Source: Candidatus Latescibacterota bacterium | Lineage (GTDB): Bacteria; Latescibacterota; UBA2968; SICM01 | Assembly: GCA_965217865.1 (NCBI GenBank) | Contig: CBDCJO010000002.1 | Location: 4,064,001-4,128,000, forward strand | Direction of reading: 5' to 3' | Length of the DNA stretch: 64,000 bases | In this document: positions 3,027-29,526 of the stretch, piece by piece | Layout of the letters: each line of letters starts with the position of its first letter | Numbering within the stretch: the stretch's first letter is position 1 | Made by a program: the position numbers and the translations under genes | Notes under the pieces: model-generated | Database searches by the model: none | Told to the model about the DNA's origin: nothing | What the model saw: only the letters and a program-made list of their open reading frames with translations

Positions 3027-3350
3027 ATGAAGAACACGACCGATCTCAACAGCTACACCCACCTGCGGAATGAGGTACTGCATCTGCTTCAGGAAGGCAT
3101 GGACCGGGCAAAACGGGCGTTGAGCAGGAGACCCTGCGAACCTACCGGAGGATCGGGCAGCTTCTTCACGATCACATCCTGCCGCACCGGGACCGTGCCG
3201 GCTACGGGGAAGGCGTCGTGGTCCAGCTTGCCCGGGATGTCGGTATTAGCAAGAGTCTGCTGTATCAGATCCTGGCTTTCTATCGGTCTGACTCAATTTT
3301 CCACACGTGTGGAAAATTGGGTTGGAGTCACTACCGAATTCTACTGAGCT
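3027..3350 (+). pseudogene. DUF1016/YhcG-like N-terminal fragment, frameshifted and truncated
   Basis: Frame 3218 reads QLARDVG..LLYQILAFY...KLGWSHYRILL, the WSHY motif of DUF1016; the sequence switches to a TPR-gene copy at about 3350. Confidence 0.7.
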
Positions 3351-3534
3351 CGTCGTCCCTTCCGAAAAGGCCGAGTCCTTTCAAGGTTTCCAGGACTTGC
3401 TCAACCTGATGAAGCCTCTCCTCTCCCGAGATTGGTTCAGCCAGCGCCTCTCTGAGCAGCGCTTCATCCTGGAACTCCTGATTGCCGTTCAATTCCCGGA
3501 TCAGATCGTCGATGTCCAAGCTGTTCTCAGCCAA
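3331..3534 (-). pseudogene. Truncated third TPR paralog (N-terminus only)
   Basis: Near-identical to the first 61 aa of ORF 4112..4777, including the upstream leader (about 3351-3572 matches about 4594-4815). Confidence 0.85.
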
Positions 3535-22543: not shown

Positions 22544-23041
22544 TCACCCCGCTTTCCTCAGCAGAATCTGGAAGATCATAACGTGCGTTACGATCAAGGC
22601 TGGAACAACCAGGAGAGGGATAAAAACCACTCCACCCAGTTGGCCTGCATCTACATGCCGGACACCCTGTGACACTGCATACAGTGCGTCCAGACTTCCT
22701 TCCAGATTGAAGATCCAGACTGCTGGAACTGCGATCGACCATCTAAACTTAAGTGCTACAGCCGCGAGCAGCGCCAGGACAGACGCCAGAAGGTCGCCAT
22801 AGGCTGCCGGTACGGCAAAATCGTGCGTAACGTCGGGTGAAACGACACCAGGTATAAGAAAAGCCAGTCCAATGTATCGAAATGCGTGGGGAAGCACGAG
22901 TGGGATCAGCGCATCATGTCGGGAAAGGTTCGCCAAGGCCGGCATGACATACCATCGAGCGATCAGACCGTAGGTCAGCATCCCAATCGCTATGCTTACC
23001 ACGATCTTCATCATATCCTGTCCCAGGACTTCTGAAGCCAT
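22544..23041 (-). CDS. Hypothetical integral membrane protein
   Basis: 165 aa, 5-6 hydrophobic segments, HAFRYIGLAF and AYGDL motifs; GAGGGG RBS. Confidence 0.8.
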   Translation of the reverse strand: MASEVLGQDMMKIVVSIAIGMLTYGLIARWYVMPALANLSRHDALIPLVLPHAFRYIGLAFLIPGVVSPDVTHDFAVPAAYGDLLASVLALLAAVALKFRWSIAVPAVWIFNLEGSLDALYAVSQGVRHVDAGQLGGVVFIPLLVVPALIVTHVMIFQILLRKAG

Positions 23042-23149
23042 AAATGCCCCCCTCTAATCTCTTTGGTCTACGTAGGATGTAAGAATCTGGCAAACTGTAT
23101 GCACTTGTATTTCAGCAAGAAATATAAGATACATCCTGTGGCGTCGCAA

Positions 23150-23530
23150 TCTTCATTTCCACTGCCACTACCGGTTTTGACTTCCCTGACCCTCGGACCT
23201 CCGACCTCTGGCCCCTGCTTTTCCTGCCACTGCAACTGCCTTTTACTCTCTCACACCTGTCTGAGTTGGCTGCGAAGCCGCCGTATCGAAGGTCTAGCTT
23301 CTGAGCTGACTTTGGCCTTCTTCTGTATTCTGTATTCTGTATTCCGGTGGGTAAAGGGAGGAAGGGCCTTCTGCCCTCGGACCTCCGATCCCCGACTTCC
23401 GTCTCGCGGCTCCCTGACCTCCCGCCAACTGAAATTGAATTTAGGTGTTCTTCTGACTCCTGTCTTCTGTCTTCTATATTCTATATTCTGTATTCCGGTG
23501 GGGGTGGGCGGAAGGGTCTCCATTTTCCCC
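23150..23530. repeat. Mosaic with two module A copies (about 23302-23366 and 23434-23519)
   Basis: TTCTGTA arrays ending in CCGGTGGG..GGAAGGG. Confidence 0.85.
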
Positions 23531-23595
23531 TTGACGTTCCCTCGAATTCATCCGTACACTGTCCCGGCGCAATCCCGCGGGATAGTTAGAGAGCG

Positions 23596-23772
23596 ATGAC
23601 GATTCGAAAAGCGATAGATTCGGACTCCGACGCCATATGCGGTTTCTTTGCATTTTTCATTTTTCATTTTCCATTTCCATGGGGCTTCTCGATCGTGGGG
23701 ACCCTGCCGAAGGCGTTCAATCATCCTGAACTTGGGCTTGTTGATCTCTTCGTCATGCACAGGTTGATCTGA
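23596..23772 (+). pseudogene. GNAT acetyltransferase relic: N- and C-termini joined in frame by a CATTTT array
   Basis: 58-aa ORF MTIRKAIDSDSDAI-CGFFAFFIFHFPFPW-GFSIVGTLPKAFNHPELGLVDLFVMHRLI*; TTGACG-18-TACACT promoter at 23531-23560. Confidence 0.75.
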
Positions 23773-23914
23773 TCGGAACCTGCCATCATCTGAACTGGCT
23801 TTTTCTCTTCCGCAGATTGTTAAGGACGCCTGGGCACGACGAGCGCTTTCCCGTCTCACGTTTCACGTCTTACGTCCTGGCCCTGACTTTCCATTTTCCA
23901 TTCCCATTTCCCTC

Positions 23915-24481
23915 ATGAACACACGTAAAGTTACTTGGATCACTGCTGGCATCCTGTTTGCGGCCGCGAGCATTTGGATTCACTACGAAGTGAAAGTCAA
24001 GATGCTCCACCGGGGTGGTGGTTCCGTTCGCCAGCTTGGAACCATTAAAGTCGACGAGATGGCACCGGATTTCTCGGCTCGCGATTTGAAAGGCCGTGAT
24101 GTTGTGCTGTCGGCATTTCGCGACCGAAAGGTTGTGCTGTTGGATTTTTGGGCGACCTGGTGTGGCCAGTGTCGGAGGGCGATGCCTTCACTCCAAACGC
24201 TTCACGATGAATCCAAAGACCGGGGGGTAGAACTCCTCAGCGTGAACCTGGGTGAAGAACATGCGAAAGTGCAGCATTTCATCCAAAGAAATGACTACAC
24301 GTTCCGGGTAGTTCTCGATGAAGATAGCACCATCGGTGGTAAATTCGGCATACGTTCAATCCCCTCCATGGTGGTAGTGGACAAAGGCGGCCTGGTGCAG
24401 TGGATCCACGTTGGATACCAGAAAGAATTGAAAGAGTTACGGAGCCTGTTGGATAGGCTGACGAAAGAAGGGGGAACATGA
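23915..24481 (+). CDS. TlpA-family thiol-disulfide oxidoreductase
   Basis: N-terminal TM; APDF; DFWATWCGQC; IPSMVVVD. Confidence 0.92.
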   Translation: MNTRKVTWITAGILFAAASIWIHYEVKVKMLHRGGGSVRQLGTIKVDEMAPDFSARDLKGRDVVLSAFRDRKVVLLDFWATWCGQCRRAMPSLQTLHDESKDRGVELLSVNLGEEHAKVQHFIQRNDYTFRVVLDEDSTIGGKFGIRSIPSMVVVDKGGLVQWIHVGYQKELKELRSLLDRLTKEGGT

Positions 24482-26612: not shown

Positions 26613-26896
26613 GAAAGCCCAGACCGTCGTCGCCCGCGAGTATGGGTTCCCGAGCTGGCCGAAGCTCAAGGCGTTCGTGGAAGCGGACAAACACCGGGGC
26701 GTCATGCCCGACGAGCTGGATGATGTGCAGTCTGCGTTTATTCATGCCGTACGCTCCGAAGATGTTGAAACCGTACGCGAGTTGCTTGGTCAACAACCCC
26801 AATTGGCCACCCTCCGCATCTGCAACGAGGCGGTCGATGAGGATGACCCCCGGTCAACCACGCCACTGCACATGTCCTCGTTTATACCCGGCAACG

Positions 26897-28461
26897 TATC
26901 TTTTGTCTGAGATCGCCCGAAAAAACGGGGGCAAGGTCGAAGCAAGATCCTGGTTGCCTGTAGGGTTGAGAAGGGATACATATTTTGGGATATCCCTGAC
27001 CTCACAGGAGGAGTAAAGATGGAGCAACTGTCCTCAAACAGTGACCCGGTCAAGAAGCGCAGGAGCTTGTCCCCGGAACAGAAGTATGAGATTTTCCTTG
27101 AAGCCAGCCGGGGAGATGTTCCCATTGCACAGGTGCTGCGGAAATGGGGCATTCATTCCTCGGATCTAAAGCGTATTCGTGAGTCGGTCAAGTCCGGGGC
27201 CCTCAAGGAGTTCAAGGGTCGCCGGAGCCGCAAGCCGATGGTATCGGCTGAGGAGGTGGAGCAGCTGCGCAAAGAGCGGGCACGCCTGGAGCAAACGATC
27301 ATTGAGCAATCTGTGGAACTTTCCCTGCTAAAAAAAAGTGTGAATGGGATCTGACAGGCCCGATCAAGGGCCACCGGGTGCAAGCTGAGGTCAAACGCGA
27401 GATCCTCTTAATGGTCCATCGGGCCAAGGAGAAAGGGGTGAAACTCACCCGTTCTTGCGAGATCCTACAGCTTCCCCTCCAGCGGTATTGTGCCTGGAGC
27501 CGGCGAGATCGAGAAGAGAAGCTGGATGGGGTGTCGGACCCGCTTTTGGATGGGAAGCCCGGGCCCGCCCCTGATAAGGCCCCACACGGATTGCTGAGGG
27601 AGGAGAAAGAGCAAATCCCGGCCCTCTTAAGGGATGAGACCTATGCCGATCTGCCTCCCCATCAGCTGGCGGTGGTAGCCTCAGAGAAGGGGGTAGTGCA
27701 GGCCTCGGCCTCCAGCTTCTACCGACAGGCCAGGAAAGAACGTCTGGCACGCAGGAAACAGGTGAGGACGCCGGTCAAGCAGAGCAAGCCCCAGGTCAAA
27801 CCTGAAGGTCCTAATCAGGTCTGGAGCTGGGACCTGACCTACATCCCATTTTTCGGTTTGTTCCTGTATTTTACCGCCATTCTCGACGTGTATTCCAGGA
27901 AGATCGTAGGATGGAAGCTCTCCTTCAACGCGACCGTGGAGCAGGTCAAACAGGCCTGGGATCAAGCCCTTGCCAACGAAGGACTGCTGGACCTGGACAC
28001 TGGGCCCATAAGCTTGACAGCCCTCTCAGATCACGGATCTCAGATGAAGGCCAAATCGATGGCCCAATTCTTCAAGGACCTGGGCATCTCGCAGCTGTTT
28101 GCCCGATATCAAACACCCACGGACAACGCCTGGATCGAAGCCTTTTTCCGGACATTCAAATACGACTGGCTGCGCTTCCAGGACATCTTCACATTCCATC
28201 AACTGGAAGGCCTGATTGATTCCTTCATTCACAGCTACAACGCCGAACGCTATCACGGGGCAATACAGTATGTCACGCCTCTTCAGAGGCATAAAGGCCA
28301 GCATCAAAAGATTCTTCACCACCGACAAGGTCGAAAGGAGGAGGCTCGGCAGCGCCGCATAGAAATCAATCGGCAAAGAACATCCCAGACCATCCACAAG
28401 GCTGCCTGAATCTTGCTTGGACCTTTATCTACTTTTCTCTTGTTATCTCAGAATAGATACA
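26897..28461 (+). mobile_element. IS3-family insertion sequence, intact copy (1565 bp) with a 4-bp AACG target duplication
   Basis: Imperfect terminal IRs TATCTTTTGTCTGAGAT / ATCTCAGAATAGATACA; AACG at 26893-26896 and 28462-28465; second copy at 44371. Confidence 0.93.
27019..28409 (+). CDS. IS3-family transposase OrfA (27019-27354) and OrfB (27378-28409) with a probable -1 frameshift
   Basis: HTH OrfA; DDE OrfB (WSWDLTY, SDHGSQ, DNAWIEAFFRTFK); A8G slippery site at 27330-27338 followed by a GGCCC..GGGCC hairpin; OrfB is in the -1 frame. Confidence 0.92.
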
Positions 28462-29526
28462 AACGAAGAATTGGTTGCGCTACTGCTTGAGGCCGGCGCA
28501 GAGGTGGATGCGCTAGGCTATCAGGGATTCTGGCGCACGCCGCTGTCGCTCGCTGCGTGGGAGGGCACAGTTGGCTGCGTGCGCCTCTTGCTCGAAGCCG
28601 GTGCCGACCCCAATCCGATCACATCCATCGGCATCTCGCCTCTACACAACTCCGTGTGTCACCGTTCACACGAGAAGACCAAGCTACTGCTGGAGTACGG
28701 CGCCCAGCCGACTCTGTACGTCGCCGTCGCGCTAGGGATGGCCGATCGCGTGCACGGTCTGCTTGAGCAGGAACCAGGACTCGTCAACGTACCCGGTGAG
28801 AGCAACCTTCTGCCCATGACCGTGGCGGCAGAGTTCGGACAGAGAGACGTAGCCGAAGTGTTGATCCAGCACGGCGCCGAGGTCACACTGACTCAAGCCT
28901 GTGGCCTGGGCATACTGGATCGTGTCAAGACATTGGTCGAGAAGAATCGGGACGCGGTTAACCAGGTTGAAGAGGCGGATGCACCGCTGATCGCGGCGTC
29001 GCGTAACGGACATGCCGATATTGTGCGTTATCTGCTCGAGCAAGGGGTGGACGTCAATCTGGCTGCGAAGGAACAGGTTCACGACATCCAAGCCATCAAT
29101 CAGGCGAGCATGGCCGGTACTGCCTCGGCGGACGTGATCAATCTGCTTGCTGAAGCCGGTGCCGACGTCTGCCACGTGTATCGTGGAAATACACCGTTGA
29201 TGAGGGCCTTGGGACGCAATGAGACAGCAGTTCAGGCGTTGGTGAAACATGGCGGATTGGGACGGTTTTATGTCGTCGGCCAGTGGAGCGGTCACCTCGA
29301 CCGGATTGAACCCTTGCTTGAACTCGGCGCCGATGTGAACGAGACCGACGAAAAGGGCAGGACGGCGCTGGATCACGCCATCAACAATCGTGACGTGACG
29401 GAAGACCCCGGTCACATAAAACGCTTCACACAGATGATCGAGCTATTGCAAAAGCACGGCGGCAGGCGTGGTGACAGCAGCCCATAGCTGAAATTTTCAA
29501 TCTTCAATCTTCAATCTTCAGTTTCC

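Follow-up and report, generated by a model that had tools for sequence, protein, structure and literature searches.

The question raised by this locus is how an array of 7-nt repeats came to stand in the middle of a gene. The stretch of DNA analysed (64,000 nucleotides of a Candidatus Latescibacterota genome, referred to here as the window) contains a 58-aa open reading frame (ORF) at positions 23596–23772 of the forward strand, in which the repeats separate two short segments resembling the ends of a GNAT acetyltransferase. A preliminary description of the window had taken this arrangement as evidence that such arrays are written into DNA at deletion or repair junctions rather than growing by slippage.

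The ORF, confirmed with the termini quoted in that description, consists of a 5′ GNAT remnant, a heptamer filler and a 3′ GNAT remnant (Table 1). A Pfam scan of the ORF itself gave no match. A search of 1.84 billion representatives with the ORF returned 37 matches, nearly all on residues 29–57; of the 12 that were scanned, eight contained GNAT domains and four contained no domain. The longer matches of a second protein search all contained PF00583 (50 of 50), and the 43 of these with lengths of 150–185 aa were used as the family profile. Residues 30–57 align with profile nodes 133–160 at 51.5 bits, a circular score since the homologues were retrieved by that part of the ORF. Independent evidence is given by residues 1–14, which align with nodes 2–15 at 5.6–5.7 bits, a score reached by none of 2000 shuffles. 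The middle of the ORF has no score on the profile, and nodes 17–132 are absent. By these alignments the two halves belong to one GNAT family, as had been proposed, and both ends of the relic derive from proteins of about 161 aa (PF00583; YncA-like or RimI-like in the source labels).

Table 1. Features of the relic and its surroundings (window coordinates).
Feature	Position	Strand	Basis
5′ GNAT remnant: codons 1–14 and the first two bases (TG) at the conserved Trp	23596..23639	+	Profile and homologue comparison
43-nt filler: 7-nt leader CGGTTTC, four TTT(G/T/C)CAT units, tail TTCCATGG; pyrimidine strand on the C-skewed strand	23640..23682	+	
3′ remnant of the same GNAT family, to the stop codon	23683..23772	+	Profile nodes 133–160
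Sigma-70-like promoter match TTGACG, 18 nt, TACACT	23531..23560	+	9/12 consensus match; predicted only
Neighbouring TTCTGTA heptamer array, polarity as in the relic array	23321..23344	+	Repeat finding
Neighbouring TCTTCTG/TTCTATA heptamer array, polarity as in the relic array	23449..23495	+	Repeat finding
Neighbouring composite array, TTTCACG/CGTCTCA then TTTCCAT, polarity as in the relic array; ends just before the tlpA-like start	23847..23912	+	
Intact thioredoxin-fold (AhpC-TSA/Redoxin) gene, downstream, heading an ABC-2 transporter operon; context, outside the relic	23915..24481	+	
165-aa hydrophobic gene, upstream and divergent, with no Pfam match; context	22544..23041	−	

The relic retains the N-terminal strand–helix motif xIRxAxxxDxxAIW and, at its C-terminus, the GFxIVGTLPxAFxH...VD block, which corresponds to the invariant GFxIVGTLPK...H..LGLVD block of the family. 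The full-length fold and the central acetyl-CoA-binding motif (G-K-G-x-G) are missing, and the protein cannot work like the family from which it is derived. The distance from the conserved Trp to the conserved Gly is 117 residues in 36 of the 43 homologues that have both motifs (50 examined) and 45 nt in the relic, which means that 349 nt have been replaced by 43 nt. The loss amounts to 116 codons plus one base rather than the 110–115 codons given previously. The missing middle was sought elsewhere in the genome and is absent, and no F/H/P-rich stretch is present at the position of the array in intact homologues. Without its acetyl-CoA-binding middle, the 58-aa product most likely has no function.

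The filler itself points to its origin. Tandem Repeats Finder reports a period-7 array at 23647–23676 (4.3 copies, 91% matches). The array, placed at 23641–23680 in the preliminary description, does fill the breakpoint exactly, although the whole foreign stretch is slightly wider (23640–23682). No base of the filler is unexplained and there are no leftover bases at either junction. A near-copy, 41 of 43 nt identical and including the non-repeat 7-nt leader, lies 165 kb away at G000:C2:4253015-4253057. The flanks of the two copies have background identity only (10/30 and 5/30). Among the 30 arrays of the same unit type and length they are the closest pair, with two mismatches (the next pair has four and the mode is seven), and they agree in the order of their units as well as in their ends. 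The leader CGGTTTC occurs at a frequency of 1.3e-4 per intergenic position; GGTTTC is found upstream of five of 123 arrays, and the leader is one of a small family located after a dispersed GGGCGCGAC motif. In the dispersed repeat that holds the twin, what comes after this motif is either a stretch of about 107 nt with no array or an array preceded by this leader or a similar one. The composite repeat, in which fixed motifs on the left and on the right flank the 107 nt or the heptamer array, is present at G000:C2:4252997-4253075 and at about a dozen other loci.

The existence of a twin with unrelated flanks is incompatible with growth in place and speaks against writing without a template. Polymerase slippage is the standing proposal for the excess of heptamers in bacteria (as cited in PMC4692102 and PMC4679880), and at this locus an ordinary deletion could have left a short seed that then expanded. 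Slippage cannot, however, yield a 7-nt non-repeat leader and a tail that are both common to a distant locus, and the homologues have no such seed at either break. The 41/43 match largely refutes this explanation, to which we attach hardly any probability, and the earlier judgement that slippage within GNAT sequence did not give rise to the array holds. We infer instead that the filler was made by templated copying, with the twin locus or a sibling of it as the probable donor. Two further readings of the twin were dropped. It was at one point considered to be a second replacement event, but it is one of several array-bearing forms of the GGGCGCGAC repeat, so that the direction of copying is not fixed. 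The co-terminality of filler and twin was likewise discarded as proof of a discrete mobile unit, since any junction ends homology. Terminal inverted repeats or a target-site duplication of the MITE/REP type were not visible by eye at the relic, where a deletion would remove one side; the genome has 19 Y1-transposase matches, for which no link to the arrays was seen here.

The junction is real DNA and not an assembly error, since contigs from other studies carry it. Support across it is provided by a single contig from run X9 (study P4) that spans 23477–23752, and thus both junctions, with 14 substitutions and one gap (at 23590). The X1 and X3 contigs agree with the window at every base but end within the array, and the source sample may be X1. 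X1/X2 (one sample) also contain a second organism, roughly 92% identical, whose 1,422-nt contig carries the same 5′ remnant as far as 23639 and the same array and 3′ remnant from 23646 onwards, with 82 nt where the window has six. The right junction is therefore common to both organisms, and the left side has changed at least once. In this relative the distance from start to stop is 253 nt and is out of frame. The array is in frame in the window, as originally noted, but its frame looks incidental given that the 82 nt break it in the relative.

A different reading is that purifying selection maintains a small protein, either the whole 58-aa product or its C-terminal part, the gene being shortened rather than dead. 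The promoter-like site and the start codon are retained, and the frame is apparently kept in the X9 allele, in which the sole gap precedes the ORF. Among the coding differences listed for the relatives (in lists cut short and end-trimmed), seven are synonymous and one is non-synonymous (P of about 4–7e-4 under neutrality). This ratio is unexpected for a long-dead pseudogene; it counts against a plain pseudogene reading and is left unexplained. The region is mosaic between strains, and recombination in such a region could supply synonymous changes. The small-protein reading must also contend with the missing catalytic core, the out-of-frame relative and the absence of any other protein of such shape among 5.8 billion, where the two candidates returned were the relic itself and a 99-aa GNAT fragment. 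We regard it as highly improbable. The differences listed among relatives at 23697–23726 and at 23601 are nearly all synonymous, and the codon position at 23709 is found in three states.

A close intact allele was sought in several ways. A metagenome scan, which was swamped, gave none (five distant loci were found), a DNA search of the phylum genomes matched only arrays, and a degenerate pattern had no matches. For P0020, 31 genomes yielded no match at E<=1e-15. These searches gave no second copy of the relic either. The GNAT family profile matched 12 of 168 phylum genomes. As no intact allele close enough at the DNA level was found, no clear microhomology is demonstrable at either junction.

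To place the relic in context, the arrays of the whole genome were collected. Period-7 arrays number 491, compared with six to 105 for the other periods among 4–12, and the first 2 Mb of C2 contain 142 period-7 arrays compared with none in a shuffle. By location, 384 of the 491 are intergenic, 50 overlap ORF calls and 57 lie inside them (from our own simple gene caller). Many unrelated heptamer unit types coexist, and the unit family of the filler recurs patchily, in 17 of 168 phylum genomes. Arrays are present in frame inside three intact genes (C2:746221-746271, 748042-748130 and 3991026-3991134), which encode two paralogous proteins and a histidine-kinase ATPase region. At two pairs of paralogous loci the flanks are shared but different heptamer types lie between them (C1:135317-135463 versus C1:138027-138178, and C2:1187457-1187490 versus C2:3329997-3330041), which indicates that modules have been swapped in place.

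The broader proposal that arrays are generally written at deletion or repair junctions is weakened by counts at junctions and relic ends. Of 61 junctions defined by paralogues (at least 85% identity to a coding reference), one carries an array, at a gene end, and the looser set of 161 has none; the 61 include some empty sites of insertion elements, and by hand count only 22 have any array within 5 kb. The filler at 52 of these junctions is 15 nt or shorter. Ends of gene fragments lie within 25 nt of an array in 10 of 712 cases, against a background of 1.33%; on reading, five of the 10 are repeat tails in ORF calls and five are real (three from a DUF1016-type family). A first count of such ends, 53 of 1365, had looked enriched, but most were repeat tails inside over-long ORF calls and filtering reduced it to 10 of 712. 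For relic ends no more than 2 kb from an array, with tails still included, 10 were found against 6.4 expected at 25 nt and 20 against 10.8 at 50 nt. A protein-level test of array flanks against the genome's own proteins found collinear matches on both sides in six of 428 clusters, a lower bound given that it missed the GNAT relic, the positive control. Short or diverged relics, this one among them, escape both the junction test and the relic-end test, which therefore bound the general claim and do not refute it; for the filler itself, a template exists.

A scan of the genome for other relics bridged by arrays found one more, a case that speaks for the preliminary proposal. At C2:5016087-5016570, a DUF1016-type gene with five intact paralogues is a patchwork of gene scraps joined by arrays, and 110 coding nt have been replaced by 80 nt made up of a scrap of the same family and an array. 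The C-terminal part of proteins of this family is presumably nuclease-like. Further DUF1016_N-type scraps adjoin arrays at C2:2297460-2297705 and 2353903-2354141, and positions 3107–3370 of the window match DUF1016_N, which is related to the family of the second relic.

The arrays have a marked strand polarity. Genome-wide, in 274 of 321 clusters (85%), the purine-rich strand of an array coincides with the strand on which third codon positions have an excess of G. The agreement is present in all four contexts of flanking-gene orientation (86/103, 113/129, 53/60 and 22/29) and in all 25 skew blocks with two or more clusters. On C2 245 of 278 clusters agree, whereas the highest count given by 548 circular shifts is 192. 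For single heptamers remote from arrays the agreement is 50–57%, so composition does not explain the polarity. The unit family AATATTC is unbiased (6/12). In a second genome, G069, the agreement extends to 47 of 58 solo clusters, taken from 34 regions that were selected around arrays and are not independent. The relic array and its twin both conform, although the agreement of one array is weak evidence. Within the window, where arrays extend from 1070 to 63780, the polarity reverses at about 5 kb and 45 kb, close to the points at which the local skew changes sign. GGGNAGGG also mostly follows the same skew sign on C2. GC skew marks the direction of the replication fork, and probably does so here, in which case the polarity would tie the arrays to the fork. 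Along C2, the skew reverses dozens of times, which points to heavy rearrangement or to joins made in assembly; it is therefore only a proxy for fork direction, and it may record older fork directions in rearranged blocks.

Two explanations invoke the repair of a broken end. In the first, a break in the GNAT gene would have been resected and joined by Ku/LigD non-homologous end joining, with capture of a loose fragment of a repeat module. The ku and ligD genes are adjacent in the genome (C2:1.099-1.102 Mb), the filler is templated with no evident microhomology, and in Sinorhizobium this pathway can capture DNA at chromosomal breaks with end deletions (PMC6379672). Blunt capture predicts random orientation, however, whereas most array clusters are polarised (a class-level argument that one locus cannot decide), and the fillers at most paralog-defined junctions are very short. 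We consider capture of this kind to be unlikely.

In the second, a dedicated enzyme (a reverse transcriptase with a short RNA template, a primase-polymerase or a protein-templated polymerase) would write arrays on broken or stalled ends, as the preliminary description implies, and the resemblance between twins would come from fixed motifs at which the writer starts and stops. The exact filling of the break is in line with this, as are the roughly 12 arrays with an identical CATTTCCATGG tail and the patchy distribution of the unit family, and the polarity would suit a fork-bound writer. The genome has three matches to reverse-transcriptase domains (C2:487638, 451254 and 814892), in stretches rich in insertion sequences. 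The match of the twin in unit order as well as ends, the coexistence of many unrelated unit types and the lack of enrichment at junctions and relic ends all argue against a writer, and no candidate enzyme or template is tied to the arrays in this genome. This version is decidedly unlikely.

The surroundings of the relic bear on a further possibility, that a PF05635 four-helix-bundle cassette flanked by inverted heptamer arms entered the GNAT gene and was later deleted along with adjoining GNAT sequence, leaving its right arm as the array. PF05635 is present at four loci in the genome (five matches), and inverted pairs of arrays are found in relatives. At one locus (L016:1360-1845; G000:C2:3991568) the PF05635 gene follows a purine-rich GTGAGAC run and has a transposase-like ORF just downstream; the copy at C2:1734300 is split in two. 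Such a cassette resembles the relic in its 7-nt kind of array, but the relic locus has neither the cassette gene nor an inverted partner arm. The window has no PF05635 match, and no arm of opposite polarity lies near the relic, all clusters from 10 to 44 kb having their pyrimidine strand on the plus strand. Only 12 purine-then-pyrimidine pairs within 3 kb occur among 322 clusters, the arrays here being mostly solo, and the twin belongs to another dispersed repeat and has no PF05635 match next to it. PF13366 was also sought and not found. A related known case is the 23S rRNA IVS (PMC4990558). We judge a cassette origin to be improbable.

Other features of the neighbourhood are given for context. 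The promoter sequence reported upstream of the ORF is present, but its role is putative: it is a 9/12 match, and three promoter-like sites were found in 23040–23920 compared with 0.7 in shuffles. No GNAT gene was seen at 37 loci with relatives of the downstream operon, several of which stop at the tlpA start. The upstream gene has 82% DNA identity to a gene in G027, from another family, suggesting recent transfer. A two-ORF insertion sequence (HTH_Tnp_1 and rve; 27019–28409) lies between a 77-aa ORF (26677–26910) and an ankyrin-repeat ORF (28417–29487) and may split one gene.

The explanation that we favour, and hold to be probable, is that the locus is a GNAT pseudogene carrying a templated 43-nt patch, laid down by a replication-linked template switch or a similar illegitimate recombination, with the loss of the middle simultaneous or later. 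The 349 nt of the GNAT middle would have been replaced by a near-copy of a heptamer module from elsewhere in the genome, and the copying would have taken place at the replication fork through a switch of template. Loss of the middle in the same event and later erosion from the left side of the inserted module are about equally probable. The twin, the swaps of modules between shared flanks, the second relic, the in-frame arrays and the polarity count for a templated patch. Counting against it are the lack of clear microhomology, the use of skew as a proxy, the presence of Ku/LigD, the synonymous excess (among the differences listed) and a result from Xanthomonas, in which the GGGAATC heptamers are reported to have no leading or lagging preference (PMC4692102).

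Cyanobacterial STRR sequences are among the dispersed heptamer repeats of bacteria. Dispersed heptamer arrays in print also include Xanthomonas GGGAATC and Nostoc GGGGA(C/T)T (PMC4692102) and Beggiatoaceae TAACTGA (PMC4679880). The excess of heptamers, their intergenic location and the slippage proposal are already in print. The known arrays resemble those described here in their 7-nt unit, in being short and imperfect, in their hundreds of mostly intergenic copies, occasionally in frame in genes, and in their rapid variation between relatives. Here, by contrast, coding sequence has given way to an array for which a near-identical copy can be traced, and unlike the Xanthomonas arrays (PMC4692102) those here are polarised with GC skew, a proxy for fork direction. 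Orientation has been reported in PMC4679880, where arrays are oriented to start codons and eight Microcystis sets lie in one chromosomal orientation, a point left open there.

Two other known systems offer partial parallels. Filler DNA and templated insertions, from eukaryotic polymerase-theta end joining and template switching (bioRxiv 10.1101/2022.03.14.484287) and from bacterial end-joining capture (PMC6379672), are alike in combining a deletion junction with a short stretch copied from elsewhere; what sets the present case apart is that its filler belongs to a dispersed repeat family, with the copy 165 kb distant, and that such filler is lacking at most junctions of the genome. KOPS (PMC3384302) are alike in that their orientation tracks strand skew along the chromosome, but they are single short motifs with a known protein reader, whereas the present arrays are tandem, comprise many unit types and have no known reader. 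A literature search, with most subscription papers outside its reach, found no array replacing coding sequence from a traceable template and no skew-linked polarity.

Taken alone, the locus is a small pseudogene, and heptamer arrays have been described before. What makes the site rare is that the pre-array state is known from protein homology, so that local slippage is excluded and a template can be named. If the polarity holds against measured fork direction, the accumulation of 7-nt repeats becomes testable in terms of strand, polymerase and donor. A wider possibility, which we put forward tentatively and think doubtful, is that a fork-coupled, strand-specific process of copy-and-paste or writing uses heptamer arrays as joints, moving modules, stitching gene scraps together and replacing hundreds of coding bases. 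If this were true, the GNAT relic would be a dated footprint of the process with a traceable donor, and the polarity of the arrays would be a readable record of fork direction.
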